Made by a program: the position numbers and the translations under genes. Source: a phage. From it: a DNA stretch of 64,000 nt. Shown in pieces: positions 1,629 to 59,867 of the stretch; the first letter of the stretch is position 1; the number at the start of each line of letters is the position of its first letter. The notes beneath the pieces are model-generated. The model was given only the letters and a program-made list of their open reading frames with translations, was not told the DNA's origin and searched no databases. The DNA is taken from NCBI GenBank assembly GCA_024686575.1, contig GCA_024686575.1_4863.1; one strand, 5' to 3'.

Positions 1629-1643
1629 AGATAATATCTATCT
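1629..1643 (-). promoter_or_regulatory. conserved 15-mer AGATAATATCTATCT (promoter-like), copy 1
   Basis: Exact 15-mer, 40 nt upstream of the ATG at 1589. Confidence 0.55.
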
Positions 1644-1694: not shown

Positions 1695-2393
1695 TTAGGG
1701 TATTAGGCGTTGGGCTATTTCGCGGAGTTGGTCGCGGGTTAAATCAGCCAACTTCTGGTCGCCGAAGCCCAACTTCAGACCCAGCTCGTACCCAGCTTGC
1801 GGATACGTGTTCGTGTTTGCTACTGAGAGGAGTGCATCGGCTATCTTTACCATCGTTAACTCGAGAGACGCATACGGGGCGGGGATCGGCTGATTCACGA
1901 TTTGGTAATTATAACGCACTGCGGCGTTATCGTAGTCAAACTCCATCCTTCTGCCGAGAACGTTAAACGACTCCGCAGAATAACTACCAAGTGGGTGATT
2001 GGCTTTTTCCCACAAATCTTTCCGTTCAGTAAACCCAGTCGCGAAGTTCTGACGTATGGTGTCGAATATTTGCGTTGCCTGGCTAGGGTGTATATTTTTC
2101 AGCTCATTGTAGTCGTAGTCGGCGATGGAATATAGAGTGAACACAACACCGTTTATATTTAACTGCGGATAATCCATCCGCAGACTGTCATCACCTTGTA
2201 AATGAAGTTCCCACATCCTTACCCACTGCAATATCGCGCTTACCGCATCGTGACTGAGATAAAAATTAGTAGGTTCTTCAGGATTTTCACGGAAGGGAAC
2301 AGAGCATTCCGATACAAAAAAGCCGGCTGCCATAAATCCTCTGCCGTCGAACATAGGCGCAACTAATCTTGATTTTTCTAAATTGATTACCAT
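1695..2393 (-). CDS. hypothetical protein
   Basis: 232-aa ORF with ATG start preceded by AAGGAG at 6-nt spacing; 15-mer motif 41 nt upstream. Confidence 0.6.
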   Translation of the reverse strand: MVINLEKSRLVAPMFDGRGFMAAGFFVSECSVPFRENPEEPTNFYLSHDAVSAILQWVRMWELHLQGDDSLRMDYPQLNINGVVFTLYSIADYDYNELKNIHPSQATQIFDTIRQNFATGFTERKDLWEKANHPLGSYSAESFNVLGRRMEFDYDNAAVRYNYQIVNQPIPAPYASLELTMVKIADALLSVANTNTYPQAGYELGLKLGFGDQKLADLTRDQLREIAQRLIP

Positions 2394-2433: not shown

Positions 2434-2448
2434 AGATAATATCTATCT
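2434..2448 (-). promoter_or_regulatory. conserved 15-mer AGATAATATCTATCT, copy 2
   Basis: Exact 15-mer, 41 nt upstream of the start at 2393, just downstream of the terminator for the 766-aa gene. Confidence 0.55.
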
Positions 2449-8874: not shown

Positions 8875-9056
8875 TAGTAAATCTCCTGCTGCATTGGAAA
8901 TACATTACCTGTCGGTGAGACAAGTAAAACTTGCGCGGTAACGTGAACGATTTCTTCTTCGTCCTGACGACGAACACCGTTAGTGAGATTATCCCACTCA
9001 CGTTTAAAACGCGGGTGAGATAAGAACTCGGCAAACTCCGTATCAGAAAAGTCCAT
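8874..9056 (-). CDS. hypothetical small protein
   Basis: Internal ATG at 9054-9056 overlaps the TAA of the upstream small membrane-protein gene (TAATG coupling); the track ORF 8874..9074 starts further upstream. Confidence 0.35.
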   Translation of the reverse strand: MDFSDTEFAEFLSHPRFKREWDNLTNGVRRQDEEEIVHVTAQVLLVSPTGNVFPMQQEIY

Positions 9057-9199
9057 TAGCCGCGACCTGTACACATGGCAACAGAGTTACCGTTATCGAT
9101 GCACTTGTTGTAATCTTGAGTTACAGTGATGGACAGTACCGCGAAAGCAACAACAGCAACGATGGCAAAGATGGCACGTTTATGGTTACGAGTTAACAT
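9056..9199 (-). CDS. small hydrophobic (single-pass membrane) protein, 47 aa
   Basis: Not in the track (<60 aa). ATG at 9197-9199 preceded by AAGGAG at 7-nt spacing; translation MLTRNHKRAIFAIVAVVAFAVLSITVTQDYNKCIDNGNSVAMCTGRG has a clear hydrophobic helix; 26-mer motif about 50 nt upstream. Confidence 0.45.
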   Translation of the reverse strand: MLTRNHKRAIFAIVAVVAFAVLSITVTQDYNKCIDNGNSVAMCTGRG

Positions 9200-9250
9200 G
9201 GCAATACTCCTTTAGATTAATAGTCGATTGAGTTGATAGATTGTCTTCTA

Positions 9251-9276
9251 TCACCTAGGTAATATATATCTGAAAT
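9251..9276 (-). promoter_or_regulatory. conserved 26-mer TCACCTAGGTAATATATATCTGAAAT, copy 1
   Basis: Identical 26-mer also at 17753-17778; shares the TAATAT..TATCT core with the 15-mer; upstream of the small membrane-protein gene. Confidence 0.5.
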
Positions 9277-9295
9277 TATTTTTATTCAGAGTACA

Positions 9296-9347
9296 CCCTC
9301 TATAACGCTCTCAAACGCGTTTTGAGAGCTTTTATCACTATAGAGGG
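9296..9347. repeat. nested near-perfect palindrome (operator- or origin-like)
   Basis: Outer arms CCCTCTATA / TATAGAGGG and inner arms GCTCTCAAA / TTTGAGAGC around a CGCG centre, in a roughly 240-bp noncoding region. Confidence 0.5.
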
Positions 9348-9397
9348 CGTTCTACCGTTAGAGTGGCTTTAGAAGGTTGTGAGTGCGTTTAGAGGGC
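9341..9397. repeat. short direct repeats TTAGAG(G/T)G, four copies (iteron-like)
   Basis: TATAGAGGG, GTTAGAGTGG, TTTAGAAGG, GTTTAGAGGG spaced 12-19 nt, next to the palindrome. Confidence 0.35.
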
Positions 9398-9432
9398 TAA
9401 AATAAAGAGACCTGGTCTCACAAGGAGACCAG
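9396..9432 (-). terminator. rho-independent terminator
   Basis: Hairpin CCTGGTCTC-ACAAG-GAGACCAGG followed on the minus strand by a T-rich tract; downstream of the stop at 9441. Confidence 0.55.
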
Positions 9433-9440
9433 GCACACAT

Positions 9441-10238
9441 TTACATCAAATCCAGGCTCTGTGAGACCGCAACTTCCGGTTCACTGATACCGCTGGTCAC
9501 TGACAATGTAAAGCGACGATCGTTAATCACTTCAACTGCTTCGCTCGCACGCAGTGAATACTTGTCGGCGATTGGCAGTACACTGTTATCGTTCTGCGGC
9601 GGCAGAATCTGTGCCGGGAACGGAATGTACGAGTTGAAAGTGATATACGGACCGACCTGCATCATCGGGAACACTTCGTTCACGTTATTTGACATCCCTT
9701 CATCCGAAGAGATAACGGAGTGACGCAGACAGGCACGCAGGCCAACGGTGTACTCCGGATCGCGCGATTCGCCGATCAGTGCGAAACGGAACACATTGAA
9801 ATCGTAGTCGTCTGCAGCGAAGTGTTCTGGCAGGATACGCTGTACGTATTCAGGGTAAGTGGTCACGTCACCCGGAATAACATTCACGGCGAGTTTCTGT
9901 GCCAGGAAATACGCATTCGCGAAACCATACTGACCCGCCAGCGCGGCTGAAATCGGTGCAGTGGTTACGCAGTGCAGGAACAAGTGATAACCCAGCCCGC
10001 CTTTATCTTCGATTGCCAGGTCCTTCTTACTCTGCACACCGTCAGCAGTATAAATAACTGCCACTGTCTTATCCAACGTCGACGCCATGACAAAATCCAA
10101 CTGCACCTCACCGCTCTGCGGTAGTACCTTAACCAGACGATCCCAGAGCTTGGTCGGTTTGGTGAAGTTAGCGGCTTCGTACGCATCAATGTCGAGAACA
10201 GTTTGGCCGGTCATGCGAAAGGTGTGAATCGCTTTCAT
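9441..10238 (-). CDS. hypothetical protein
   Basis: 265-aa ORF; terminator hairpin 9411-9432 just downstream. Confidence 0.55.
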   Translation of the reverse strand: MKAIHTFRMTGQTVLDIDAYEAANFTKPTKLWDRLVKVLPQSGEVQLDFVMASTLDKTVAVIYTADGVQSKKDLAIEDKGGLGYHLFLHCVTTAPISAALAGQYGFANAYFLAQKLAVNVIPGDVTTYPEYVQRILPEHFAADDYDFNVFRFALIGESRDPEYTVGLRACLRHSVISSDEGMSNNVNEVFPMMQVGPYITFNSYIPFPAQILPPQNDNSVLPIADKYSLRASEAVEVINDRRFTLSVTSGISEPEVAVSQSLDLM

Positions 10239-10281
10239 TGCAATATTTTCCTTAAGGTTACTTACGGGTCATACTAGATGA

Positions 10282-11595
10282 CTAAGCTGTAAATTTTTCA
10301 TCTTTGAGCCAAAGACTCAGTTGTGATTGGGTGTTATAGCGTCCTGATGCCATCGTTTGACCATCGACAGCGGACTGGAACACTTCACCCACCAACGTGC
10401 CGTAGCGGGTATAGACCCCATACTCGTTGGCAAAAACGTATTTTACTGGCATACCGGGATATAGGATGCCGTGCGTTGAACGGTTCCAGGTTGTTTGCAC
10501 AATCGTACCCAGACCCATCTCCAGTTTAGACCGCTGCGGTTTATCGGTATCACTAAAGTGTTTATCAGGATCGATTGGTGCGTTAACCACGCCGCCTGGA
10601 TACGCAGCAGGGTCGGCCTGCGCCACAAACTTATCAGGTGTGGTCATACTGATGTCGCCAGGCGTAAATGAACTACTACGCCCATCCAACACACGTACAG
10701 ACCCTACCCTGTAACCCGTACCGTGGTTAAGCGCGGCCTGGTCACGGTATTCCAAACTACTGGTGTCGCCGCCACAAATCAGATAGATAACATTACCCGC
10801 GATATCGGTGGTGCGGTCAATGTGAGCAGCCTGTTCACGAGGCAGATTATAGATGACCAGTTTAGGCTTCGTTGTGTTATTAAACTTCAACGAGTCCCAG
10901 GGCCGATACAGATACCAGCGCTGCAAGTATTGGAAGACCCCAATACCTTTGCTGTAAACACCGTAATGGTTCTGCAGATAATCAAACACGCTTAAGAAGT
11001 CTTCGGAGTCCGGTATAACGATATCACGATATGCCTGCTGTTCTTCCTCGTCGTATTCAATTCCTTTCAACTGCCCCTCTGCAGCCACCCCGTCCGGCAA
11101 CGTATCCGCCAGTATCGAGCGTGCCACTGTTAACCCATCGGTTTCGTGGTAGATACCGCCCACTTGACGGTTACGCAGGAACCACATCGACTCATCCATC
11201 AGCTCCAATGTTACCAAAGCGATAGATTTCTCATCAGACTGACTCAAGAACATCGTCGGTGTTTCCGCGTTGTGGTCGCGGTTATTTATCACGATGCCGC
11301 GGTAGTTAAAGACCCCCGCGATTTTCTGTCCACGACGCAATAACAGCTTTACCTTCAAATCCCCTTCTGCGGACGATGTGATCATTCGCATGTGGCTGTA
11401 GGGTATAGCCAAGGTGAGATGTGTCAATAAACAGATATCGCGCGTAAAGTGACCCGTGTGGATGATAGACAGCATCTTCAACACCGTCACTGGGGCACCG
11501 TGCACCGTGAGGAATATCCCGTAGTCGATAGCCGGTAACCCCCGAGCATTAGCGATGTGACCGTTCGCCATCTGTTGTAACCGACCAAACGACAT
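10282..11595 (-). CDS. hypothetical protein
   Basis: 437-aa ORF, overlaps the stop of the upstream gene at 11595. Confidence 0.55.
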   Translation of the reverse strand: MSFGRLQQMANGHIANARGLPAIDYGIFLTVHGAPVTVLKMLSIIHTGHFTRDICLLTHLTLAIPYSHMRMITSSAEGDLKVKLLLRRGQKIAGVFNYRGIVINNRDHNAETPTMFLSQSDEKSIALVTLELMDESMWFLRNRQVGGIYHETDGLTVARSILADTLPDGVAAEGQLKGIEYDEEEQQAYRDIVIPDSEDFLSVFDYLQNHYGVYSKGIGVFQYLQRWYLYRPWDSLKFNNTTKPKLVIYNLPREQAAHIDRTTDIAGNVIYLICGGDTSSLEYRDQAALNHGTGYRVGSVRVLDGRSSSFTPGDISMTTPDKFVAQADPAAYPGGVVNAPIDPDKHFSDTDKPQRSKLEMGLGTIVQTTWNRSTHGILYPGMPVKYVFANEYGVYTRYGTLVGEVFQSAVDGQTMASGRYNTQSQLSLWLKDEKFTA

Positions 11596-12134
11596 TAGCG
11601 ACCTCCTCGGGCTCTATAAGCGTACTCAATACGTTTCATAATCGTATCATTAAAACGGTGGAGTTTAGACTCCAGGCGGACCTGCCCAAATAACGACTGA
11701 ACACAGTCCGCCATCGTTGCCGTGGGTTTCTTGAAATACCCGTAGCGGTTAGCCACAGGAAACAGTTTCGAAGCCAGCACATTGAACTGACGCAACCCTT
11801 CGATAGGGACTTCCCGGTAAATCAGCGTCGGGTTCTCCAGATAGTTCAGCCAGTCCGCAAGGTGTTCCATAATCCACCCGTACACTTTAATCCCGTCATG
11901 CGGGTCGTGTACATCTAACGCACCACCGGTCGCTAAATACTCAGCAGCTTCTGAGGGGTGCAGATAGATAGGCTTCATGTTCAGTAACAACGCTTGTCGT
12001 TTCTTCGGGTCTTCTGGCAAGAACAATCCGTGTTCCTGACTGGCGTAGGTTGTGATGGTTGCGTATTCCGGTACCCGGAAGAACACCCACGCTTTAAACA
12101 GCATAAATGCTGCACTGCGCTTCTTCTCCGACAT
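11595..12134 (-). CDS. hypothetical protein
   Basis: 179-aa ORF in a tightly packed minus-strand run. Confidence 0.5.
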   Translation of the reverse strand: MSEKKRSAAFMLFKAWVFFRVPEYATITTYASQEHGLFLPEDPKKRQALLLNMKPIYLHPSEAAEYLATGGALDVHDPHDGIKVYGWIMEHLADWLNYLENPTLIYREVPIEGLRQFNVLASKLFPVANRYGYFKKPTATMADCVQSLFGQVRLESKLHRFNDTIMKRIEYAYRARGGR

Positions 12135-12136
12135 TA

Positions 12137-13492
12137 CTACCTCGCGTATTTCAAAATCACGTAGACCATCGGGACGTAATAGAACTGACTGTCCTTCGGT
12201 AAAGCCAGCACCAATTCTGCTAAACGCGCAGCCACTTCACTAGGTACCGGTTGTTTGTTCAGATACAGGTACAAACAATGCTCCAGAACCGAGCTGTACG
12301 AGCCGCTATAGAACGTTTCGCTTAACAGGTAGGGTTTATACGTCAACGGCAGAAAAGCCACCATATCCTCGCCTGCGTTGCCCTGATACTCAGGGAACAT
12401 AACCGGTTCGAATGCTTCGAACTCTGGCCACTCCCCATCGTACGTTGCCAACTGACGAATCTGTGATGTAAAGAAGCGCGTTGAACTGAACTGTGACCAC
12501 GCGATGGTGTTGCGGGTCTGCATCGTTCTGAAAGTGCGCGGGTTAACTGCGCTGCATTCTTTCTCGACGTACGGTAGTAGTCCTGGCTGTTGATTTAACA
12601 ACACCGTGAACAGCGTTTCGATATCTTGCACAGGTTTCGGCGGGTGTGGGTAAATACGGATATCTTTACCAACGGTTCGAAGGCCGATAGCCTTCACAAA
12701 CATCGCCAAGAAGACGTCGTAGTAGCCACCTGCCTTTAACCCGTCGAGTTTCCAGTCGCGTGGATAAGCAAGGGTTTCTAAACTGGTATCGTAGAAACGG
12801 CGAACAAACGTCGTCTCAATGTCCTTAATGCGGTCTCCCAGCTCCAGGAACGTACGATACTCGTTGGGGGTCAGTAAGGTATCACCACCGGTCCACGCGC
12901 GCTCACGGACGTAATGGAGCGTTCTCACAGTGCACAGACGAATCGTCTCTGCAATCTGCGGTGTAATCTCGTACAACATCGTGTAACGTATCTGGTACGT
13001 TGCAATTTTGTTGTTCGACATTCGGGTAACGGCAGTGATGTTAAACAGTCCGTGTCGATGGTCGCCTATCGGCGCAACAAAGAAGTCACCCTCGTTCGGT
13101 GTAATCGATGCTACCAGGGTCGACGTCCCGGTCAGTTCGAAAGTCTTACGTTGTTCGTCCTGCGTACGGTCGAGCGGTGCGTTAACACGTAATGACAGAT
13201 TAACAATCTTAAGCAGCTGTTGCGTAGGGCTGTCATTCTGAGTATCGAACATCGTCTTCGGATCGTTGCGACCCGACAACGCGTGATAAAAATCAACCGG
13301 CCATTCAGAACCTTCGTTGTATTGCAGGAGATACTGTTTCGGAATCCTGTCGAAGTCCGTTACCGTGGTGCGGGTTGGAATCGTTACCAAGTTGCTGGCT
13401 TCTTTTACCCCGTCCTGCGGTTTATTGATAATCGGAATCTCAGGTTCAACAGGAACGAATTTAGTATCACCCCTCTTGTTCGCCTTGAGCAT
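12137..13492 (-). CDS. hypothetical protein
   Basis: 451-aa ORF. Confidence 0.55.
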   Translation of the reverse strand: MLKANKRGDTKFVPVEPEIPIINKPQDGVKEASNLVTIPTRTTVTDFDRIPKQYLLQYNEGSEWPVDFYHALSGRNDPKTMFDTQNDSPTQQLLKIVNLSLRVNAPLDRTQDEQRKTFELTGTSTLVASITPNEGDFFVAPIGDHRHGLFNITAVTRMSNNKIATYQIRYTMLYEITPQIAETIRLCTVRTLHYVRERAWTGGDTLLTPNEYRTFLELGDRIKDIETTFVRRFYDTSLETLAYPRDWKLDGLKAGGYYDVFLAMFVKAIGLRTVGKDIRIYPHPPKPVQDIETLFTVLLNQQPGLLPYVEKECSAVNPRTFRTMQTRNTIAWSQFSSTRFFTSQIRQLATYDGEWPEFEAFEPVMFPEYQGNAGEDMVAFLPLTYKPYLLSETFYSGSYSSVLEHCLYLYLNKQPVPSEVAARLAELVLALPKDSQFYYVPMVYVILKYAR

Positions 13493-14969
13493 TATCGGCT
13501 CCTCTGATGGCTATAATCGTGGTATTAAATTGCGTCAACAGGACACGGCGATAGAACTTCGTGATTTCACCAATCACACTTGGTGGTAACACAGGTTTAT
13601 CCCACCACCAATCCGGGCAATCCCAATCTGGGAATAACCACTCAATAAGCACTTTTGCCGCTTTTGGATAAAGATGCAGTGGCCATAAGTCCATATTACG
13701 CCAGTCGTGTATTGCCGACTCTGTTAAGTAGTACGCTTTCTCGACATGAACTTCACGGTTACGTAGCGAGAAGACGCCGTTTTCCCAATGGTAGAAACGT
13801 GGTTCAATGATTTGACCGTTCTCGAACAATTCCATACGGATAATGCCCGTCTGACCTGTCGGGTCTATCGTGCGACAGTGCTCGATATAAGGAACCACGT
13901 CGGCATTCCAGACATACGGTAAATCATCGATACTACAAACCTCAGGGTCGATCATGTTTTCTTCACCGAAGGCTACATCGGTGCCGAACACATGCAGAAG
14001 CTTTGCTTTTAGCGGCGAGTGTGTACGTTCGAACTGTTCTGTCGGTGACAGCAGATACGGTAGGCGTAAGAACTGGCGAGATTCATTAATCCACCAAGTG
14101 CCGTCGAGGTTCTTTTGCTGTTGGTGACGTTGCACACCCTCTTCATTACTCACAAACGGTGGGTCTATCTCAGGCCACCATTCATCGGGCAACGGTGTCT
14201 GGTTGATGATGTACGGGTAGGTAATCACCACCTCTTCGGGTCGCTGATACGAGAAGCGTATAACGAAGCTGGTCTCGTAATGGTTTTCGTCGTTATCCCA
14301 GGTAGGAGAGATAACATCGTAAACCGTCTCGATACGGGTTGGTGCATAACGCACCGCTAAGACATTCTGGCCACCGGCGACATTGCCTGTGGTGAAAACG
14401 TCGGGTGTGAAATGTGCCTTTAGATAGGCTTTAAAGTCATCGTATTTCGGCACACGGGTCCCTGCGGCAATATAGCATTCGTTCAATAGCTTAAGCGCAG
14501 GCTTTGGAATCAGGTAGTACGCTTCGGATTCCGTCATGGTCGAATAGCGACCCATGTCGATAAGTGAATCCAAGCGGTTTGCCCAACGTAACAATTCGTC
14601 ACGCGATGGGCCGACACGCCGTAGCGTGATGGTCACGTTATACATTACGCGGACAGGAGCAGCGCGTACTTGGTCTTCGGGGTTATGGAAGAATGGAATC
14701 TCTGCCGCTAACCCAACTTGACGGTTAATGCGTGCACGTTCATCACGTTCTTCTTCCACTTCGACGTAGACACGGTTCGGTGCTGAATAGTCCACCGGTG
14801 TCTCATCGCCGAGCGTAGAGCCTGGCTGATGGGCGGTGTTGAAGCTATCCGTGAAAACAACACTGGCACGTTCAATACCAGATTCGTTTAGCACACGTTC
14901 TACGACGCCGTCGACCACAGCTTTGCGCATGGTCTTGTCCAACGATGGAATTTCAAAATACTGTTGCAT
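13467..14969 (-). CDS. hypothetical protein
   Basis: 500-aa ORF, ATG start with GAGGGA upstream. Confidence 0.55.
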   Translation of the reverse strand: MQQYFEIPSLDKTMRKAVVDGVVERVLNESGIERASVVFTDSFNTAHQPGSTLGDETPVDYSAPNRVYVEVEEERDERARINRQVGLAAEIPFFHNPEDQVRAAPVRVMYNVTITLRRVGPSRDELLRWANRLDSLIDMGRYSTMTESEAYYLIPKPALKLLNECYIAAGTRVPKYDDFKAYLKAHFTPDVFTTGNVAGGQNVLAVRYAPTRIETVYDVISPTWDNDENHYETSFVIRFSYQRPEEVVITYPYIINQTPLPDEWWPEIDPPFVSNEEGVQRHQQQKNLDGTWWINESRQFLRLPYLLSPTEQFERTHSPLKAKLLHVFGTDVAFGEENMIDPEVCSIDDLPYVWNADVVPYIEHCRTIDPTGQTGIIRMELFENGQIIEPRFYHWENGVFSLRNREVHVEKAYYLTESAIHDWRNMDLWPLHLYPKAAKVLIEWLFPDWDCPDWWWDKPVLPPSVIGEITKFYRRVLLTQFNTTIIAIRGADNAQGEQEG

Positions 14970-15004
14970 TAGCTGTCCCTCGTTGTAGTCATATCACTGG
15001 CCTA

Positions 15005-15040
15005 AAACGCAAAAAAAAGAAAGGGAGCCGAAACTCCCTT
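15005..15040 (-). terminator. rho-independent terminator
   Basis: Hairpin AAGGGAG-CCGAAA-CTCCCTT preceded on the plus strand by an A-run (T-run on minus). Confidence 0.7.
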
Positions 15041-15046
15041 CGTGTT

Positions 15047-15376
15047 TTAGTGGGCCAGCCAAGCCAGCTGCCACTTCTTACATTTTATTCCGCTGTGTCC
15101 AACCGGATTGCGGATAATGTCCATCGTTTGCCCGACAACGAATTCAATCATCTTGTCTGATAACCTTTTACCCATCGCGATAGAGAGGGCTGTAATTTGA
15201 TCAGGGTCATCGATGTACGCATAGACCGGCTCATTACTGCCGAAGATAAGATAGAAGGAACCCTCGCACGCCACGATTGAGGTCAGTGGCACGATACACC
15301 CGGTATACTCTCTCGCCAGTTCAGCCGCATTTGGGGTTACTTCCATTACGTAACCTTTAACAGATTTCTTTTCCAC
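15047..15376 (-). CDS. hypothetical protein
   Basis: 109-aa ORF immediately downstream of the DHFR gene; terminator follows. Confidence 0.45.
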   Translation of the reverse strand: MEKKSVKGYVMEVTPNAAELAREYTGCIVPLTSIVACEGSFYLIFGSNEPVYAYIDDPDQITALSIAMGKRLSDKMIEFVVGQTMDIIRNPVGHSGIKCKKWQLAWLAH

Positions 15377-15377
15377 T

Positions 15378-15929
15378 TTAAACTCCAGCGATACGATTTA
15401 AAATTTGATACGTCCAACGGTGCGTGTGTTTCTGGCCGTCGGGTAAATGAGTCATGGTGTAGTCGACTTGAAAAACATCTCTGTCGATTTCTGGGAAGAA
15501 TGCATCTGCACCTTCAACAGCAATGTCAATACGCGATAGATAAATACGATCCGCACGAGCGAGGGTTTGTTGATAAACTGATGCGCCGCCAATAATCATC
15601 ACCTCTTGCTCTTTTCCGGTATCTTTCTCGATACGTTCCAGAGCCTTGATGGCTAAATCAATACTCGTGTGAAACGTCACCAAACGCATGTCGGTGTGTT
15701 CTTCCCGGCCATTGATGTACCCTTCTGGGTTACGAGTAACAATTAAGTTACCGCGGTTAGGCAAAGGACGACAACCTAACGATTCCCAGGTCTTACTACC
15801 CATGATAACGTTCTTCCCTGTGGTAATTGCCTTAAAGTTAGCCAGGTCGGCAGGCAGACGCCACGGCAGTTCATTGTTTTTACCGATGGCGTTGTTGCGG
15901 TCCATCGCGACGATAATAGAGAGTTTCAC
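15378..15929 (-). CDS. folA: dihydrofolate reductase
   Basis: Translation aligns by eye with bacterial DHFR along its length: IIVAMDRNNAIGKNNELPWRLPADLANFK, TTGKNVIMGSKTWESLG, LPNRGNLIVTR, MIIGGASVYQQ, IDIAVEGADAFFPE (compare E. coli FolA [75 protein letters not shown]). Start is GTG with AGGAG at 6-nt spacing. Confidence 0.85.
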   Translation of the reverse strand: MKLSIIVAMDRNNAIGKNNELPWRLPADLANFKAITTGKNVIMGSKTWESLGCRPLPNRGNLIVTRNPEGYINGREEHTDMRLVTFHTSIDLAIKALERIEKDTGKEQEVMIIGGASVYQQTLARADRIYLSRIDIAVEGADAFFPEIDRDVFQVDYTMTHLPDGQKHTHRWTYQILNRIAGV

Positions 15930-16300
15930 GGTTTGCTCCTACGGGCTTTAGATAATTCTTTCATTGCGTGGCGTAAATGGCGACTAAATTCAAGACGGCT
16001 ATACGAGAATGTCACCGGATAGTCCAGAATCACCGACAGTGATACCGTTCTGGCATCCACTTCGACCAACAGACTGTTCGTACAGCAACCTGCAAACATC
16101 CCACTACCAACCAACGGCCTCTTAAGCCTAATAGTTAGCGTACCAAGCCATTCCCTGTCGCCGAGCAGCAACAAGGCCTCTGCCAGGTCTTCTTCAACTA
16201 CCGCTAGACAGTATTCGTCATCTCGTACACGGAGGCGAATCTGCGGTTCTACGTTTGCGATTTCTGGCGTCATCTCAAATTTAAATTTATCGGTCATCAA
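15926..16300 (-). CDS. hypothetical protein
   Basis: 124-aa ORF overlapping the DHFR start by 4 nt. Confidence 0.45.
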   Translation of the reverse strand: MMTDKFKFEMTPEIANVEPQIRLRVRDDEYCLAVVEEDLAEALLLLGDREWLGTLTIRLKRPLVGSGMFAGCCTNSLLVEVDARTVSLSVILDYPVTFSYSRLEFSRHLRHAMKELSKARRSKP

Positions 16301-16344
16301 ACAATCCCAAAAAAGAAGGTGGCATGTTAGGCCACCTTATTAAA

Positions 16345-16890
16345 TCATTGAACCATACGCTGCGCGTCGTAAGACGGTGCGAGGTTCACAACACGACCAT
16401 GTAGAGTTTGCTCTGCTTCGTCTAACAGGTCATCGCGTACGAGCGTCTGGCGAATGTAAAGCGTTGCACGTATCCCCTCAGCGCTGTAAGGCGCGGTGAC
16501 CATTTTGGTCTGGTAACCATCAATCGTCACCGGAACACGCTCACCGTTACGACGAACAAAATGCTCCAACTTACCGTAATCGTGACTACAGACTTTAGAC
16601 ATGTCGGACAATCCCGCATCGATTAAGTATTTCCAAAGACCGATGATGCTCTCCGAGCAATGTTTGTTAAGTTCACCTTCGACGACAAACTCGTACCCAC
16701 CGTACGTTAGAATGTGCGTGCCTGCTGCACGACGATCACATTCTAAAATGAATACGCCCAGACCAATCATAACTGGACGCGGGATTGTCATGACACTGGT
16801 ACTAAATTGCAGCGTAGTAACCTCATCCCAAAGGGGCGATGATTTATCGTTACTTACGCTAATAATATCTTTAAGATTGACACGTTTCAT
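16345..16890 (-). CDS. hypothetical protein
   Basis: 181-aa ORF. Confidence 0.5.
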   Translation of the reverse strand: MKRVNLKDIISVSNDKSSPLWDEVTTLQFSTSVMTIPRPVMIGLGVFILECDRRAAGTHILTYGGYEFVVEGELNKHCSESIIGLWKYLIDAGLSDMSKVCSHDYGKLEHFVRRNGERVPVTIDGYQTKMVTAPYSAEGIRATLYIRQTLVRDDLLDEAEQTLHGRVVNLAPSYDAQRMVQ

Positions 16891-16948
16891 TATAAATACT
16901 CCTTAAGATTAATGGTCGATTACATACGGTTTCAGGCTAACGTAATAT

Positions 16949-17710
16949 TTACGCTGCTGGTTCTTCAGCGGTTTTCACTTCAACTGGTTTCATCAGCGAG
17001 TTCGCACAGTCGAAGATAGCATCCAGGAAACCACGGAACGGCTTCATGGCTTCACGCTGGGCGTTCTGACGTTCTTCTTCAATTGCTTCTTCTTGCGCCT
17101 GAATTTCTTCAGCAGTCAGCTCCGGGTGTTCCGTCATGCTTTCTGCCAGGGTCATCACTTTCGGCTGCGCATTCCGAATCGGAATACGGCGGATGACCTT
17201 GGTGATATTCCCGAGCTTCATGCCACCCAGCGCGGTTTCGAACAGCGTACCGAAATCTTGCAGTGGGTCTTCGCTGATTTCCAGTACCGCCGGAGTCGCA
17301 ACCAGACCAAAGGCAATGACCAATTCAACAGCAGTGTCGGTGACGTGCACAGCGAACGGGGTGTCTTCCATCTGCAGGTAATTGTTACCATTATAGGTCA
17401 CCGGAATGAATTTGATTTCTTCCCCTTTCTTCAGGCGCAGTGTGTCGACTGCGGCTTTGTACTGAACTTCGTACAGTTCCGGTTTAACACCGTCAACGTT
17501 ATCCAGTGTAAAGAGCAGGTCGCCAACCGCCATACGGCGCGGCAGTTTGCGTTTGTTGATTTCGCGCAGCCAGACTTGTAAGCCGGTGAATTGAATTGGG
17601 GACAGTATAATTTTAAAGCCGTTGGTTGCTTGCAGGATAGCACCGTCGTCTTCGCTACGTTCGATAGAGCCATTAGCCAGAGTAAGCAGATTGATAGTTT
17701 TCATTTTCAT
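16949..17710 (-). CDS. hypothetical protein
   Basis: 253-aa ORF, ATG start with AAGGAA upstream; 26-mer motif 43 nt upstream. Confidence 0.5.
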   Translation of the reverse strand: MKMKTINLLTLANGSIERSEDDGAILQATNGFKIILSPIQFTGLQVWLREINKRKLPRRMAVGDLLFTLDNVDGVKPELYEVQYKAAVDTLRLKKGEEIKFIPVTYNGNNYLQMEDTPFAVHVTDTAVELVIAFGLVATPAVLEISEDPLQDFGTLFETALGGMKLGNITKVIRRIPIRNAQPKVMTLAESMTEHPELTAEEIQAQEEAIEEERQNAQREAMKPFRGFLDAIFDCANSLMKPVEVKTAEEPAA

Positions 17711-17752
17711 ATTCCTTAAGTGATAGTCGGTTAAAAGATTACCAATGCAATC

Positions 17753-17778
17753 TCACCTAGGTAATATATATCTGAAAT
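17753..17778 (-). promoter_or_regulatory. conserved 26-mer TCACCTAGGTAATATATATCTGAAAT, copy 2
   Basis: 43 nt upstream of the start at 17710. Confidence 0.5.
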
Positions 17779-17795: not shown

Positions 17796-17835
17796 AAAAA
17801 AAGAAAGGGTAAATCCCCCACCGAAGTGGGGGATT
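17796..17835 (-). terminator. rho-independent terminator
   Basis: Hairpin AATCCCCCAC-CGAA-GTGGGGGATT with a minus-strand T-run; downstream of paralog A. Confidence 0.7.
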
Positions 17836-17846
17836 CGCCAGTCTAA

Positions 17847-19106
17847 TTACTTAGACTTTTCGTACGCACCGATACCGGCGCTGATGTAGCCGTTAACGCC
17901 GGCGATCAGGTTTTTCTGGCCAGTTGCAACGCAACGTTCGGTCCAGGAGATGTACTGGTTCGCAACGGTGATTGCACGACGTGCAACACGGACGTTGGAA
18001 GTCAGTTCAGCGTTGTCGTCGATCTTCACGCCGTCGATACGTTTCAGCAGCGCCTCAATAGCCCGCTCGTACGATTCTTGAGCCTGGTTATTTTTGTGGT
18101 ACGCTTTCACGTTCTCTTCGACTGCTTTACCCAGCTGGTTGAAGAACGCAACCAGAGAAGACAGCGTCTGAGCAGACGGAGTAGAAACAGATTTTTCTAC
18201 GCTGCCTTCAGCATCGATAACGGTGAAGGAAGCTTCCAGGTCATCCCCGTTCACTTTCACGTCAGCTTTACCGATCTGGTTACCCAGCAGTTGAACTTCG
18301 CCCGCTTTGCCTGCAGTGGCTTTGTTAACCGCTGCTGCGAAGCCGCTGTTCAGTTTCCCGCCTTCAACTGCGCTGACCATGCTGGTTGCAGCTTTGACCA
18401 CTGCATCCTGCTCGCCGTAGATGCTGCCGATAGTAGACAGAACACCTTTCAGGACGTTGATGTCGTTACCGACGAACTTACCACCGGTGGTCAGGTTCTT
18501 AATGAACCCACCGCTAACGGTGTCTTTCTTCTGCTTGCCCAGACCACGCAGAGCCGCGTCATATTTCTTAGCGCGCGCCTGAATGGATTTACCCTGGTTG
18601 CTGAACTTGAGCCAGCGATCTTTGATTTTACGGCCTTGTTCTTTCAGCCAGTCGAAGATACGCTGCAGGAACGCTTTGATGTCGTCCCACAGTGATTCAC
18701 GAGCAACCTGACGGCGTTTACGTGCGCCGTAAGATTCCTGCGCAACGCTTACGCGGTGATCGAATGCCCAACGTTTACGGATAGATTCCTGCGCAACGTC
18801 CAGCTGCTCAGCAGCTTCGTCAGGCATATCTTCTTCCACTTCCATTGGCTCTTCGCCATCTTCGCCTTCGCCGTCAGCAGCGGCTTCAGCAGCATCAACT
18901 GCATCCAGCTGTGCATCAGTTTCGTCACCGTCTTCTGCCAGCACGTCTGCTTCTGCGTCCAGCTGGTCGATCGGTTTGGTGTCGTGCTCGATGTCAGCCA
19001 GAGTACCTTCCACGGACTCAGCCGGCAGCTCGATGCCATCTGGAACGACAGTGCCTGCGCCTTCGACAGATTCACGAGCGAGTTTACTTTTTACAAAGTT
19101 AGCCAT
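17847..19106 (-). CDS. paralog A of a tandem pair; candidate protease-processed head/internal protein
   Basis: 419 aa; N-terminus MANFVKSKLARESVE and C-terminus GYISAGIGAYEKSK shared with the adjacent gene; acidic Asp/Glu/Ala-rich N-terminal region with several A/S-x-E sites; terminator downstream. Confidence 0.6.
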   Translation of the reverse strand: MANFVKSKLARESVEGAGTVVPDGIELPAESVEGTLADIEHDTKPIDQLDAEADVLAEDGDETDAQLDAVDAAEAAADGEGEDGEEPMEVEEDMPDEAAEQLDVAQESIRKRWAFDHRVSVAQESYGARKRRQVARESLWDDIKAFLQRIFDWLKEQGRKIKDRWLKFSNQGKSIQARAKKYDAALRGLGKQKKDTVSGGFIKNLTTGGKFVGNDINVLKGVLSTIGSIYGEQDAVVKAATSMVSAVEGGKLNSGFAAAVNKATAGKAGEVQLLGNQIGKADVKVNGDDLEASFTVIDAEGSVEKSVSTPSAQTLSSLVAFFNQLGKAVEENVKAYHKNNQAQESYERAIEALLKRIDGVKIDDNAELTSNVRVARRAITVANQYISWTERCVATGQKNLIAGVNGYISAGIGAYEKSK

Positions 19107-41748: not shown

Positions 41749-43854
41749 TTACAACTCAATTACCACAGCGGCTCCTAGGTCATCGTACAACGATGCCGGG
41801 ATTTTGTACTCGGTATAAAAACCAACGCGATCGATATTCCCCTGCTGTCCTTCAAACAACAACATCGGAATTGCCGAGCGCAAACTAATGAGCGTGTTGT
41901 GATCGACAAACCGTTTCCCTGTAGCGTTAGTAGAATCCTCACTGTCAAATCCTACTGCCGGGAACGGATTGGTTGGCGACTCTACACGAGATATCGCCAA
42001 CATAATCGCAATGTGCGTCATCGGTATACCACTCAGCTTACGCTGGATATACTTAAACGTGTCCATCAACGCATAAGTACACTGTTTCTCTGTAGCACCA
42101 CCCATTTCAACCAACGTCACCGGTTTCACACGACCTTGTTTCTTGTTCAGCTTCACAGTCGAGGCTGTGTTGATGATTTCCACAATGTCTTCGTTCTTAT
42201 CGGCAGCAATCGAACGGAGCTTGGTTTCTAAGCCGGCTACGAACTCCGCCATCGATTCAGAACGGTTGGTGTAGACCAGGACCGGGTGTTTCGGGTTCCA
42301 TCCTTTTAAGGGGATTTCTACCGTCTTCTTCTCGATACGAATGTTCGCTCGTTGTTTCAAGAAGTAGTGCAGGAACGGTTTAGAGAAGTTCCCACAAACA
42401 CCCATTCGCACATCGATAGAATCCGCAGCGATTATCTGCCCATCTTCTAAACGACGTTGGAAAGTTAAGTCGGTGATTTCTGGTAATGCCGTTTCATCAA
42501 TTGCATCGAGATCTTCATGATACGCAATCTGGCTCAGCTCCGAATAAACTTTGTCGGTAACAACCAACTCGTATTCTGACCAATTCCCACGCTGTGGTTT
42601 TGGCAGCAAGCACAACCCTTTCAGAGAGTTATGTTTGTATTCGGTCATATACTCACGCATACGTGGGGTGAGTACCAGGTTGAGCAGATAACGCAAGAAG
42701 TCAAGGTGCTTGGTAGAGAGAATTCCCTGTGTACCCTTTTCCGAGATGGACGTGGATGCCAGGTGACCTGGTGACGTACCTTCAGAGAGGTTATAAATCA
42801 AATCCCCCATACAGGTCGCACAGATGGACTGATTCGCCATCTCTTTACAGGTCATGGCACTACGGAAGACCAGCGGTTTGCCAACCAGGTCTGCGTATCC
42901 GCCTTTCTCAAATCGCAACCACGGACCATTATCGCCTTCTAAACGATAACGCATCCCCACCATCGCTTTATAGGCACGCTCATCCAGCTGCGTATCCTTA
43001 AACGTGTAGCGGTGTGCGTGTGTTGTACCGCAGTCGTCGTACGTGAAATACATCAGTACGTTTGCTGCCAGCTGCAGTTTACGTGAGGCGTATTCTGCTT
43101 CGGCAATCTTGTCAGTGTTGTACAGGTGGGAACGTGAAGTTGCACCAGATTCTTTCAAACGCGAAATAACCGAATGCATTCCGGTAAAGAAGCCTTCCCA
43201 CACCTGATTGGTGTATACACGTGAGTCAATTTCTGACGTTTTGCCGCGCACGAACGCTTGCAGTACCTGGTTCATCTTCACGGTACCGTCCAGTACCGAC
43301 ATTACGACTGGGTTATACCGCAGCGCAGGGTCTTTGAAGATTTTCTCGATAAGCTTATACGCTTCTTCAACCATATCCTGACCATCTTCATCGTAGCCAG
43401 TAGGATACTGCACTTCCCACTGACGGATGAGTTCGAAGTTCGGGTGGTCGTAGATCTCCATCATCGTATCAAAGTCGATTGTCGTACAATAGGACAGCAA
43501 GTTCTTCACTGTCATGTTGAACGCATCGGCGTAGACATGTTGACTCAGGATATAACGCGTTTCAGCAAGGTCGACACCTGCTTTACGGGCCAGTACCGCT
43601 GCTTCCGACATAAAGTCCAGATGCAGGTCATCTGTTGCTACCTGACCTGGACGATACGCCATGGTCGATGGAGTGGGCACCTGCGGATACAGACGCGACA
43701 CACCCCAATACGGCCAGCTGAGTTTGATGTGGCGACTAGACATTTCCAACGACTTACCATCGTCGAAAGTCACGTAATAACGCCCGCGTAGTTTCCACAC
43801 CTGATCAGAGTTAAGCATACGCAAATCACGTACGTGTACAGAACGACCCGCCAT
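41749..43854 (-). CDS. multisubunit RNA polymerase beta'-like subunit, C-terminal part
   Basis: 701 aa; STSISEKGTQGILSTKH resembles the beta' trigger loop (SIGEPGTQLTMRTFH); ATG overlaps the TAA of the upstream beta-like gene (TAATG). Confidence 0.6.
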   Translation of the reverse strand: MAGRSVHVRDLRMLNSDQVWKLRGRYYVTFDDGKSLEMSSRHIKLSWPYWGVSRLYPQVPTPSTMAYRPGQVATDDLHLDFMSEAAVLARKAGVDLAETRYILSQHVYADAFNMTVKNLLSYCTTIDFDTMMEIYDHPNFELIRQWEVQYPTGYDEDGQDMVEEAYKLIEKIFKDPALRYNPVVMSVLDGTVKMNQVLQAFVRGKTSEIDSRVYTNQVWEGFFTGMHSVISRLKESGATSRSHLYNTDKIAEAEYASRKLQLAANVLMYFTYDDCGTTHAHRYTFKDTQLDERAYKAMVGMRYRLEGDNGPWLRFEKGGYADLVGKPLVFRSAMTCKEMANQSICATCMGDLIYNLSEGTSPGHLASTSISEKGTQGILSTKHLDFLRYLLNLVLTPRMREYMTEYKHNSLKGLCLLPKPQRGNWSEYELVVTDKVYSELSQIAYHEDLDAIDETALPEITDLTFQRRLEDGQIIAADSIDVRMGVCGNFSKPFLHYFLKQRANIRIEKKTVEIPLKGWNPKHPVLVYTNRSESMAEFVAGLETKLRSIAADKNEDIVEIINTASTVKLNKKQGRVKPVTLVEMGGATEKQCTYALMDTFKYIQRKLSGIPMTHIAIMLAISRVESPTNPFPAVGFDSEDSTNATGKRFVDHNTLISLRSAIPMLLFEGQQGNIDRVGFYTEYKIPASLYDDLGAAVVIEL

Positions 43855-46091
43855 TATTTATCCTCCCGAATTGGACGCACTAATTCAAAACCTTCACAGC
43901 GATGGATGTTACGTATCATCCTGTCAATCTGCGAATCACCCATTGGCAGTTTCTTACGATCGACCAGCACCCCTGGATTGGTTGGTGTTGGCGAGTTATA
44001 CAGCCCCGTTACGATCGCACGGTGTACCGCAGGGTTATTAGCGCGGTCATGAGTTTCGGGGAAGTTGCCCGGACCAAAGCCGTCGGTAAGACGCTGCTCG
44101 GAAGGACCACCCCACTTCAACCCTTTCAGGTTAATCGGATATGAACCACGTCCTTGGTTGGATGCATCAATACAACCCAAATAGTTCGTGTACATCGACG
44201 AGATACTGGAGAACTCACGACCGGTTTTATCCAGGCGCAGAGTCTCTACCATGCCGACGTAAAACTGGTTCTTCGTCCACTCTTTCTCACCCTGATAGTT
44301 AGTAATCAGTAGCTTAGACTTGCGTGGTGCATACTCGCCTAGAGCACGGCAGATTTCTACCTGGGTAGCATTCAATTCGTGGGGAAGCCAGATACGAATC
44401 GTGAAGTCGTAAATCTCTTTAAAGAGTTCCAGACGTGACCCAGTATCCGGGTGACTGGCATTGAGATAGAATGTCCAGCGTGGGTTATAGCGATCGATAT
44501 AGTCCATCAGGATTTCCCAGGCTTCATCAACCTGGTTGGCGGCAAGTAAAGGTTTCAACCGCATCTTCAACTGCTCGGATGCAGCAGACCAATACATGTG
44601 GAACAGCGCAGCATAAGTCGAACGACGAATTACGGCGTTCATGGAACGAATGACATGCACACGTTCTCCGAACTCGTTAATCGGCATTTCTTCATCAGGC
44701 CGCACTGCGCCCACGATACCTTTTGTACCTGAACGGTCGGTGATTTTCGATGAGACGGTAACTGGGATTGGATAACGTACCACGATGCGTATCGTGTAAC
44801 TACCAATTGGGTCCCAGAGACCACGCTGAACCGGCTGCGCCAGTTTGTTTAACACGTTCTTATCAGCAGAACGGTTATACTCGCCTTTACGCATGGCTTC
44901 ATCGTATTCACGACCAATCTCTTCACGGAAGTCGTTATAGACTTCATACGTCTCAGAACAGAACGCCTTGTCAAGAATCTCAAACGCTTTCGGTGACCAG
45001 ACGATATTCTTGTCCTTGGACATCGCAAAATAGAACCGTACGATATCATTGTAAAAACGTTTCAAAGCGTTCGCGTAGTGATCTAACTCGCGTTTGTTCT
45101 CTTCGGTACATGCGATATTGTTAACACCACGATCGCATTTGGTTTCGTCCCGCCATACCTGAATATCAACGACACGAGAACCGGTACGTTCCATCTTTTC
45201 AAAGTCGCCAGCCAGTCGCGCTTTGTAATGCTCAGGGTCGGCATCAACATACTCACAACGGTCGAAGTGCGGAGAGACATGTTGTGTTTCACCTACGTGC
45301 GAGTCAATGGCTGCCCATAGCTTATCGAAACGGCGCGCGGCAATAACCAACCCATCATCACGAATTGCCTGTCCTTTATTGGGCAGGTACTGTGGTCGAC
45401 GAACGCCATCAATACCCGTTGTCCCATACGTATCAAGCAGGTACTCGTCGTCGCGCAAGGTAAAGTCGATTGCACGCAAACCATAAGCGTGCATCGCTTT
45501 CGCTGCAGTTTCGGAGATGGTGTACGAGTCCTCGATAATGTCCGGGTGCGACATCGTCACGGTGTGCAGGTTGACCCCATCGACAAACTCACCGTCTTTC
45601 TGTGCCGGCAGCACGGTAAGCATTTCATCTTTTTCCAGGTGCTGCGTCTGCCCGCGCAGCAACGCCTGAAGTTTCCCAGTAGCCTCTTTCTTAGACGAGA
45701 AAATGTTATCGTGGTTGGTGTAATACTTAATATCGATTACATCAATCATCACTTTGCGCTGGTTGGTTAAATCTGCGCGCGTGAAGAAGATAACATGTTG
45801 GAGCGGTTCGTGATCCCCTTCACGACCATAGCGTGCAAAAACAGCTGCACGAGTAACACCTTCTTTGGTTGTGTAACTGCACACGGTACCACTGTCTTCC
45901 ACGATATCGTTAAAACAATAATCGTGGTAGTTCACATCAGCGCCGGTAAAATGGATAGTCGGATCTGGATTGTCCAGTGGTACCGCCGACTTCATATGTC
46001 CACCCACCATTGAGGCACGTGCCCCAGATACGCCAGTGATATTCACCTCACGGTCAGCAACGCTTGACATGAGTTCGACTGGTGTTTTCAT
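43854..46091 (-). CDS. multisubunit RNA polymerase beta-like subunit, C-terminal part
   Basis: 745 aa; DRSGTKGIVGAVRPDEEMP resembles the beta GRHGNKGVVSKI..EDMP segment, with a downstream YVGMVETLRLDK (compare YMYMLKLNHLVDDK); AAAGGAG RBS; 15-mer motif 31 nt upstream. Confidence 0.7.
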   Translation of the reverse strand: MKTPVELMSSVADREVNITGVSGARASMVGGHMKSAVPLDNPDPTIHFTGADVNYHDYCFNDIVEDSGTVCSYTTKEGVTRAAVFARYGREGDHEPLQHVIFFTRADLTNQRKVMIDVIDIKYYTNHDNIFSSKKEATGKLQALLRGQTQHLEKDEMLTVLPAQKDGEFVDGVNLHTVTMSHPDIIEDSYTISETAAKAMHAYGLRAIDFTLRDDEYLLDTYGTTGIDGVRRPQYLPNKGQAIRDDGLVIAARRFDKLWAAIDSHVGETQHVSPHFDRCEYVDADPEHYKARLAGDFEKMERTGSRVVDIQVWRDETKCDRGVNNIACTEENKRELDHYANALKRFYNDIVRFYFAMSKDKNIVWSPKAFEILDKAFCSETYEVYNDFREEIGREYDEAMRKGEYNRSADKNVLNKLAQPVQRGLWDPIGSYTIRIVVRYPIPVTVSSKITDRSGTKGIVGAVRPDEEMPINEFGERVHVIRSMNAVIRRSTYAALFHMYWSAASEQLKMRLKPLLAANQVDEAWEILMDYIDRYNPRWTFYLNASHPDTGSRLELFKEIYDFTIRIWLPHELNATQVEICRALGEYAPRKSKLLITNYQGEKEWTKNQFYVGMVETLRLDKTGREFSSISSMYTNYLGCIDASNQGRGSYPINLKGLKWGGPSEQRLTDGFGPGNFPETHDRANNPAVHRAIVTGLYNSPTPTNPGVLVDRKKLPMGDSQIDRMIRNIHRCEGFELVRPIREDK

Positions 46092-46121: not shown

Positions 46122-46136
46122 AGATAATATCTATCT
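46122..46136 (-). promoter_or_regulatory. conserved 15-mer AGATAATATCTATCT, copy 3
   Basis: Exact 15-mer 31 nt upstream of the RNAP beta-like gene start (46091), in the divergent region shared with the + gene at 46158. Confidence 0.55.
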
Positions 46137-51280: not shown

Positions 51281-51295
51281 AGATAATATCTATCT
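51281..51295 (-). promoter_or_regulatory. conserved 15-mer AGATAATATCTATCT, copy 5
   Basis: Exact 15-mer 35 nt upstream of the start at 51246. Confidence 0.55.
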
Positions 51296-59788: not shown

Positions 59789-59867
59789 TGTAATTTCATG
59801 GAATGCAAGTATGCCGTCGCTTACTTACAAGGCACATAGTCCAGACATTTCTCAGGAACTGTCACAT

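Follow-up and report, generated by a model that had tools for sequence, protein, structure and literature searches.

Identical 26-nt elements of an SPN3US-like jumbo phage as probable early promoters of the virion RNA polymerase

The repeated 26-mer and its surroundings

The DNA analysed here is a stretch of 64,000 nt from a phage (GenBank assembly GCA_024686575.1, contig GCA_024686575.1_4863.1), referred to below as the window. Over 11 kb, the region shares 98-99% identity with Salmonella jumbo phages of the SPN3US type (Seoulvirus); it is about 98% identical to SPN3US itself and 60-83% identical to a set of Erwinia jumbo phages. It carries open reading frames (ORFs) resembling the β subunit of RNA polymerase (RNAP), as judged from Pfam and PHROGs, together with a homologue of gp55 of the non-virion RNAP (nvRNAP) of phage phiKZ (E = 1e-41). 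The element under study is a 26-mer, TCACCTAGGTAATATATATCTGAAAT, present as two exact copies in intergenic DNA, at 9251-9276 (copy 1) and 17753-17778 (copy 2) on the plus strand of the window; a search allowing up to three mismatches returned no further copy in the window. The functional reading strand of both copies is the minus strand, on which the element reads ATTTCAGATATATATTACCTAGGTGA. Copy 1 is located 51 nt upstream of the ATG at 9199 and copy 2 is located 42 nt upstream of the ATG at 17710.

The first gene behind copy 1 (9056..9199, minus strand) encodes a 47-aa protein corresponding to SPN3US gp66 (phrog_8574, function unknown) and heads a run of small genes reaching to about 7347. 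Copy 2 comes after two internal head protein genes, gp53 and gp54 in SPN3US numbering, and is followed by the gene of a 253-aa protein corresponding to SPN3US gp55 (16949..17710, minus strand; phrog_18643, function unknown). According to the annotation of the SPN3US region, a dihydrofolate reductase gene is among those further downstream. The initial annotation had drawn attention to a 26-mer identical at two loci and upstream of minus-strand genes at both. These observations were confirmed, and none of 100 dinucleotide-preserving shuffles matched the 26-mer (chance expectation 0).

Each copy is preceded by a strong intrinsic terminator on the minus strand. Ahead of copy 1, the terminator of the upstream operon (265-aa gene, 9441..10238) spans 9410..9434 and consists of a 10-bp stem and a T-run (minimum free energy (MFE) -17.5, z = -5.0); its hairpin is retained in relatives by compensatory changes. 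Ahead of copy 2, the terminator of the internal-head-protein gene (17847..19106) spans 17811..17836, with an 11-bp stem and a T-run (MFE -22.4, z = -4.2). A terminator directly before each copy is the arrangement expected where a new transcription unit starts after a structural-gene unit.

The sequence flanking copy 1 is unrelated to that flanking copy 2, and identity ends abruptly at both ends of the 26-mer. These sharp borders and unrelated flanks point to a short constrained element and not to a duplicated segment; a recent duplication was ruled out by the flanks. It is extremely unlikely that the two copies are the product of chance or duplication, a small mobile repeat devoid of regulatory role, or ordinary host sigma-70 promoters. 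Such an origin would agree with the small number of exact copies, two in the window and two in SPN3US, and with an AT-rich sequence containing TATATT, which resembles a -10 hexamer. However, a sigma-70 scan found no site at either copy and a regional total of 9 sites compared to 10.3 by chance, which led us to reject a host sigma-70 promoter. Moreover, the element is absent from the host and from other bacterial genomes, and the same 21-32 nt are invariant across genera at both corresponding and non-corresponding sites.

The full-genome search proposed in the initial annotation gave a mixed answer. The complete SPN3US reference genome indeed contains the exact 26-mer only twice, but its 21-nt core, AGATATATATTACYTAGGTGA, is present there in six copies, namely the two exact 26-mers and sites at 94239, 113986, 165687 and 223277. 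Near copies of the 26-mer in SPN3US have 1, 1, 2 and 4 mismatches, to which is added a site of an intermediate type with 4 mismatches. In IMG/VR, the core occurs 41 times in 14 jumbo-phage contigs, including SPN3US, phiEaH2, ChrisDB, Caitlin, Huxley and several uncultured phages. By comparison, 596 Gb of bacterial and archaeal genomes yielded a single match, for about 0.5 expected by chance according to our own estimate. This lone cellular match (L171, 1202-1222) lies on a 2.3-kb contig binned as an uncultured archaeon and has neither the T-rich block nor the leader features described below.

Conservation was also examined position by position. The position of copy 1 holds a site with the same 21-nt core, in each case of subtype B (defined below), in SPN3US and uncultured jumbo-phage contigs as well as in four Erwinia phages (Huxley, ChrisDB, Caitlin and others). 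The copy-2 module is identical at 32 of 33 nt, the whole 26-mer included, in the Machinavirus phage pEa_SNUABM_43, the genome of which is otherwise unalignable. In this phage and in pEa_SNUABM_4, the terminator-promoter module is the sole part of a 1-kb query to find a match; a terminator stands at the position matching 17811..17836, with a different stem sequence. When corresponding intergenic regions are aligned, the promoter forms the conserved block, while the terminator stems change in a compensatory manner and the coding flanks diverge.

Two further features lie close to copy 1. Two tandem 11-nt direct repeats, GCGTTTGAGA-GCGTTATAGAGGGT (9295-9318, minus strand), are located 23 nt upstream of the copy-1 core, with related inverted units up to about 9400. 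In six related phage contigs, a block of the form GCG...AG.GCGTT.TAGAGGGT is kept ahead of the promoter at the corresponding position, and SPN3US has similar tandem units, GCTTTTAGAGA-GCGTTACAGA-GCGTTTTAGAGGGT, at 137566 and at 240059, the latter close to the genome end. The block at 9295-9318 is a candidate site for a DNA-binding protein. On the plus strand, the palindrome GCTCTCAAACGCGTTTTGAGAGC followed by TTTT (9307-9329) scores as a terminator opposing the local gene direction; in relatives, this palindrome is not kept as a hairpin.

A promoter family resembling the early promoters of phiKZ

The most repeated word in the window is the 15-mer AGATAGATATTATCT, with five exact copies, all on the minus strand. 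The minus-strand 26-mer contains AGATATATATTACCT, which has 13 of 15 positions in common with the 15-mer and differs at two, in agreement with the common core noticed in the initial annotation. Up to three mismatches, the window contains 12 matches to AGATAGATATTATCT compared to 1.05 expected; nine of them are plausible sites, and all nine lie on the minus strand, which is the gene strand. The family scan was then extended to the complete SPN3US genome, assembled from five pieces. It gave 23 candidate sites, every one on the gene strand, 20 of which lie wholly within intergenic DNA, a fraction amounting to 6.4% of the genome. The intergenic sites are 30-139 nt ahead of the next start codon, except for the site at 72486, located before a gene that is truncated in SPN3US. 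The family thus fits the description of a highly conserved AT-rich motif of about 10 nt, repeated on the gene strand in intergenic DNA upstream of operons. Among the matches listed when IMG/VR was scanned for AGATAGATATTATCT, most were chance matches in unrelated contigs, and no counts were taken from them.

SPN3US-type phages encode two multisubunit RNAPs. The virion RNAP (vRNAP) of SPN3US comprises gp42, gp218, gp240, gp241 and gp244, and its nvRNAP includes gp35 and gp77 (PMC5105663). Family members head all three operons containing nvRNAP subunit genes (gp22-23, gp34-35 and gp76-77), and the SPN3US genome scan found no family site before any vRNAP gene. Since the nvRNAP is unable to make its own first transcripts, the sites of the nvRNAP operons must be read by a polymerase present at injection.

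The 26-mer was compared with phiKZ, whose consensus we rebuilt directly from the genome sequence. The comparison centres on the octamer TATATTAC, an extended -10-like element located at 9259..9266 in copy 1 and at 17761-17768 in copy 2 (minus strand). In the window this octamer occurs only twice, both times on the minus strand and once within each 26-mer. The first 100 kb of phiKZ contain it 12 times on the gene strand versus twice on the other strand, and at least nine of the 12 gene-strand copies stand directly before an annotated start codon. All seven sites in the first 50 kb of phiKZ consist of a T-rich block, A(G/A)AT or ACAG, TATATTAC, 5 nt and TG. Both copies of the 26-mer, read as ATTT-CAGATA-TATATTAC-CTAGG-TGA, fit this succession of T-rich block, octamer, N5 and TG. 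The phiKZ sites include those upstream of PHIKZ054 and PHIKZ068, and a primary transcription start site (TSS) of an early promoter has been mapped for PHIKZ054 by differential RNA sequencing (dRNA-seq) (PMC8244752). The 26-mer is identical to the phiKZ site at 51705 at 22 of 26 positions and to the PHIKZ054 promoter at 20 of 26, the range over individual promoters being 19-22; no match to the 26-mer with three or fewer mismatches was found in phiKZ. The layout of the family may be labelled ATTTCAGAT-TATATTAC-N5-TG.

The sites of SPN3US-like phages and phiKZ thus have in common the T-rich block near -22, AGAT, the octamer, the 5-nt spacing and TG. They also share their location, on the gene strand in intergenic DNA, upstream of nvRNAP subunit genes and of the gene at the nuclear-shell position. 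Three differences were observed. Unlike phiKZ, SPN3US-like phages possess a second and commoner core (GATATTAT within AGATAGATATTATCT). Their start region, CTAGGTGAG, is far more conserved. Finally, about two thirds of subtype-B leaders form a stable initial stem-loop, compared to 2 of 12 phiKZ sites. In phiKZ, the promoters of PHIKZ006 and PHIKZ010.1 (2640-2725 and 4490-4575) are identical from the core through about 45 nt of the leader and show scattered differences upstream; phiKZ thus likewise has repeated promoter-plus-leader modules.

Besides the two 26-mers, the family members of the window, all on the minus strand, are mostly of the 15-mer form, called subtype A below. The site at 1629..1643 (AGATAGATATTATCT) heads gp76, followed just past the window end by gp77, the β-N gene of the nvRNAP. 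The site at 2434..2448 comes after the terminator of the major capsid gene and heads an ORF of 232 aa (1695..2393; phrog_15414), which is intact in the window between these two promoters. The SPN3US reference has about 39 bp in place of about 646 bp of this gene, which leaves a distance of 198 bp between the two promoters; this is the truncated gene behind the SPN3US site at 72486. Huxley retains a gene at the position of the ORF. The subtype-A site at 46122..46136 heads the two RNAP β-like genes, 43854..46091 and 41749..43854 (SPN3US gp34-gp35; Pfam RNA_pol_Rpb2_6, phrog_3295). Further exact copies of the 15-mer are located at 51281..51295 and at 49865..49879. The latter lies within the 3′ part of an ORF (49612..51246), upstream of the next gene, and its counterpart is retained at the corresponding intragenic position of Huxley (28171). 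This site probably functions as an internal promoter that serves the next gene.

A tandem pair of sites (59775..59882) is made up of 59868-59882, with one mismatch, and 59775-59789, with two, and is also present in Huxley, at 18606 and 18697. It heads a gene of 617 aa (57875..59728). The gene that follows (56197..57792) is the homologue of PHIKZ055, that is nvRNAP gp55 (E = 1e-41, 27% identity), and the 617-aa gene holds the position of phiKZ gp54, the nuclear shell protein. The 617-aa protein shows no detectable similarity to phiKZ gp54 (chimallin) by BLASTP, nor to any PDB chain by phmmer. On the basis of synteny alone, it may be the nuclear-shell gene.

Core subtypes and the transcript leader

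The two core types were compared over 35 sites, pooled from the SPN3US genome and the first 100 kb of Huxley (consensus tttcAGATAgATATTAtCT..GtGA). Core positions 6 and 13 are strongly linked (Fisher p = 1.6e-5), with 24 G/T sites (subtype A), eight T/C sites (subtype B, that of the 26-mer) and three hybrids (SPN3US 4427, Huxley 31917 and Huxley 18606). This linkage lends some substance to the proposal of the initial annotation that the 26-mer is a promoter class separate from the 15-mer, active at a different time or with a different polymerase; such a polymerase could be the nvRNAP assisted by a middle-stage factor. In the same direction, subtype B has the longer conserved start region CTAGGTGAG and a leader hairpin in 7/7 SPN3US copies versus 3/15 of the other subtype. 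Both subtypes coexist in Salmonella and Erwinia phages; the nvRNAP operons are all preceded by subtype A, whereas subtype B precedes small genes of unknown function and a helix-turn-helix (HTH) regulator. Homologues of the 47-aa protein encoded behind copy 1 are found downstream of subtype-B promoters in 8 related contigs.

We nevertheless consider a separate class unlikely. Besides nearly the whole core, the upstream TTTC is common to both subtypes. The extension that had been regarded as distinctive of the 26-mer, CCTAGGTGA on the coding strand, proved to be a family feature, as its GTGA box is present at the same offset in 21 of the 35 sites, of both types. In addition to the hybrids, the subtype switches between genera at three pairs of corresponding sites of SPN3US and Huxley. 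The copy-2 position is subtype B in SPN3US (56294) and subtype A in Huxley (59452), the site before the HTH regulator is subtype B in SPN3US (94239) and subtype A in Huxley (95494), and the hybrid at SPN3US 4427 corresponds to a subtype-B site at Huxley 6790. Such interchange at fixed positions between nearly identical cores argues that one polymerase reads both. Finally, it is subtype B, and not subtype A, that is octamer-identical to the experimentally defined early promoters of phiKZ; on sequence, the 26-mer would be, if anything, the canonical early form. The idea of a class therefore holds only as a linked subtype, T6/C13 with CTAGGTGAG and a 5′ leader hairpin, conserved across genera. 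Subtypes A and B possibly differ in strength or timing, and the linkage of positions 6 and 13 is what gene conversion between promoter copies would yield.

The leader hairpin begins at the predicted 5′ end of the transcript. For copy 1 it spans 9235..9252 (minus strand; GAUAGA-agacaa-UCUAUC; MFE -6.6 kcal/mol, z = -2.66). For copy 2 it spans 17729..17757 (minus strand; MFE -10.1 kcal/mol, z = -3.53), with the core stem AGAUUGC-auug-GUAAUCU at 17736-17753 followed by UUUU, and only one of 200 shuffles was equally stable. No Rfam family was found anywhere in the window. Among subtype-B sites, the 5′ arm of the stem-loop is conserved as GAGAG/GAGAU and the 3′ arm varies to match it, giving arm pairs such as GAGUUAA/UUAACUC, AGAUUGC/GUAAUCU, GCAUUGA/UCAAUGC and GAUAGA/UCUAUC, among others. 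When shuffled with the first 5 nt kept fixed, 24 of the 35 distinct subtype-B leaders surpassed 95% of their shuffles in stability (mean MFE -8.2 versus -3.3 kcal/mol). The stem starts from the predicted +1, leaving no unpaired 5′ nucleotide, in 27 of the 35, and within 0-2 nt of it in 33. Leaders of such stability are found in 3 of 15 subtype-A sites and in 2 of 12 phiKZ sites.

In E. coli, an mRNA whose very 5′ end is held in a stem is shielded from 5′-end-dependent attack by RNase E and RppH. According to Emory, Bouvet and Belasco in 1992, 5′-terminal stem-loops are said to stabilise E. coli mRNAs, for example that with the ompA leader. A stem placed 0-2 nt from the 5′ end, as predicted for most subtype-B leaders, has the geometry by which this kind of decay is known to be blocked; unlike for the ompA-type leaders, the stabilising function of the subtype-B hairpins is purely inferred. 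Our preferred guess, by analogy, is that the leader hairpin protects the 5′ end from decay. Alternatively, it may act as an attenuator, a short U-run often following the stem, or as a protein-binding site.

The inverted repeats downstream of the core also raise the question of an operator for a phage DNA-binding protein, in place of the promoter or besides it, with these repeats as dimer sites acting for example in early shut-off. The core of subtype A is a partial palindrome (AGATA-N5-TATCT), similar arms (GAGAGTTAA...TTAACTCTC) recur in many subtype-B leaders over +1 to +25, a position typical of repressors, and the gene of an HTH protein itself lies behind a subtype-B site. However, the sites always face the same way with respect to the genes, a constraint that would not apply to a symmetric operator, and the palindrome is broken in the 26-mer (AGATA...TACCT). 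Moreover, the sequence and length of the stem and the size of the loop (3-11 nt) vary widely while pairing is retained, as expected of a structure in RNA but not of an invariant binding site for a protein. An operator thus appears very unlikely.

The hairpin is followed by a leader box, AATCGACTAT at 9220..9229 in copy 1 (minus strand, at a fixed distance of about -25 from the ATG) and CCGACTATCAC at 17720-17730 in copy 2. The sequence ATCGACYAT occurs 12 times on the gene strand of SPN3US versus once on the other. At -20 to -27 from the start codon, GACYAT is present in 9 SPN3US genes, including both 26-mer-driven genes, the box having the form (A)ATCGACYAT(TA). The sequence ATCGACYAT also occurs in leaders that have no promoter motif (SPN3US 167593 and 224198). 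The box might serve in the initiation of translation or represent a second type of promoter, close to the start codon.

In a broader but unlikely proposal, subtype-B sites would be more than promoters and form a composite cross-genus cassette made of terminator, A-tract, promoter, invariant start region, 5′ stem-loop, AATCGACYAT box and Shine-Dalgarno sequence. Such cassettes would mark a distinct immediate-early sub-regulon whose transcripts would owe a special fate to the 5′ stem-loop and the leader box, would be kept uniform by gene conversion and would aid the swapping of early genes between phages. If so, the transcripts might be protected from host or phage RNases, be handled in or exported from the vesicle of early infection, or be recognised by an RNA-binding protein of the phage. 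Independently of this proposal, the order of terminator and promoter resembles one that has reportedly been described by Arbiol et al. in 2010 for T4-type phages, where PeSL (promoter-early stem-loop) cassettes consist of a terminator stem-loop followed by a near-identical early promoter, in repeated copies. The PeSL promoters are said to be host sigma-70 promoters, and the cassettes to have been proposed as mediators of gene shuffling. As in PeSL cassettes, a stem-loop stands directly upstream of a near-identical, repeated promoter, and the same arrangement is seen in relatives; unlike them, the 26-mer has no sigma-70 match and is probably a promoter of the phage-polymerase type. The genes around corresponding modules are not always the same in related phages. 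Behind the copy-2 position, SPN3US and Huxley have different genes, with no homologue of the 253-aa protein (gp55) at the corresponding Huxley position. A similar promoter-plus-leader module is present at other loci in relatives; however, the single indel examined had removed the interior of a gene and did not run from promoter to promoter.

Probable early transcription by the virion RNA polymerase

According to a review, every jumbo phage encoding RNAPs has a highly conserved AT-rich motif of about 10 nt, centred around -10, upstream of its presumed early operons, and wherever it was tested this motif is an early promoter used by the virion RNAP (PMC7598289). In the Bacillus jumbo phage AR9, dRNA-seq bore out that an AT-rich motif, found bioinformatically to be over-represented upstream of early operons, is the early promoter, and its use was ascribed to the virion RNAP (PMC5312081). 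The principle of an AT-rich motif before early operons is the same here; AR9 differs in its consensus, as far as described, and in its uracil-containing genome. By analogy with these phages, we think it likely that each 26-mer is a complete early promoter, used on the minus strand by an SPN3US-like jumbo phage of the nucleus-forming kind, and that the injected multisubunit vRNAP is the enzyme most likely to recognise it. A promoter upstream of the minus-strand genes, as the initial annotation assumed, is well backed by the position and strand of the copies, the upstream terminator, the conservation across genera and the match to phiKZ early promoters.

The proposed promoter would be laid out on the minus strand as an A/T-rich stretch, ATTT (about -24 to -21), CAGATA, TATATTAC (about -14 to -7), CTAGG and TGA. 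Initiation would occur at or beside the G of TGA, which is the position most conserved downstream of the core among the 35 family sites. The predicted start is thus 9252 for copy 1 (minus strand, ±2 nt), and the equivalent G of copy 2 is at 17754; the SPN3US counterparts are at 65432 and 56313, respectively. The 26-mer would then cover about -24 to +2, that is the entire promoter, which would explain the exact length of the identity. The two copies would be identical because this whole footprint is under selection, with gene conversion among promoter copies possibly helping. The terminator directly upstream would insulate the new early unit from the preceding structural-gene unit. The RNA would start with the short stem-loop from its first nucleotides, followed by the AATCGACYAT box and then the Shine-Dalgarno sequence.

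The hairpins call to mind phage N4, whose single-subunit vRNAP recognises a DNA hairpin with a short stem and a 3-nt loop upstream of the start. An N4-like hairpin promoter was ruled out, the hairpin here being on the wrong side of the start. The 26-mer is a linear AT-rich motif, unlike the N4 promoters, and its hairpins lie downstream of the predicted +1 with loops of 3-11 nt. The likeness lies in early genes being read by a virion-carried polymerase, which in N4 is injected with the DNA (PMC4496689).

Several observations weigh against assigning the 26-mer to the vRNAP. The review cited above states that early motifs "differ from phage to phage" (PMC7598289), so the likeness to phiKZ could be over-read; in the AT-rich phiKZ genome, chance alone gives about 3 matches of at least 18/26 per 100 kb. 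Among the 41 copies of AGATATATATTACYTAGGTGA, many are at corresponding positions in related phages and hence are not independent. The genes right behind both copies have no Pfam match, and PHROGs gave only families of unknown function; the link to early genes is seen for the family, through the nvRNAP operons, while the genes behind the 26-mers themselves (gp55 and gp66) are functionally uncharacterised. Furthermore, the copy-2 unit continues into genes annotated as virion structural proteins, which are expected to be late. The hairpins are not in register when the 35 leaders are aligned without gaps, so that RNAalifold returned no consensus structure; the evidence for the hairpin thus comes from per-sequence stability, not from column covariation. 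Finally, transcriptome or TSS data for SPN3US-like phages were not found in the literature, and start site, timing and polymerase are assigned by analogy. We therefore infer, and do not observe, the recognition by the vRNAP, the early timing of both units, the exact start site and the role of the hairpin.

This kind of promoter is already known, and in the features accessible to sequence analysis the 26-mer belongs to the phiKZ-type early-promoter family. The review implies that the SPN3US motif was located bioinformatically in 2016 (PMC7598289), although we found no accessible published description of it. What was less expected is how little the promoter changes from phiKZ to SPN3US, and that one subtype has a 5′-terminal hairpin and a leader box. 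The proteins of the two phages are only about 20-30% identical (PMC5105663, Table 6). A promoter almost unchanged between a Pseudomonas and a Salmonella phage despite this divergence points to strong conservation of the surface that recognises the promoter, in an enzyme with an as yet unidentified specificity factor. SPN3US-like phages are used as a genetic model of the jumbo phages that form a nucleus, and are candidate agents for the biocontrol of Salmonella and Erwinia. For these phages, the family provides a practical map of probable early transcription units with predicted start sites, and the 26-mer may be usable as a portable early promoter for their engineering. The 5′-terminal hairpin and the leader box offer testable leads on how early phage mRNAs may be stabilised or handled.

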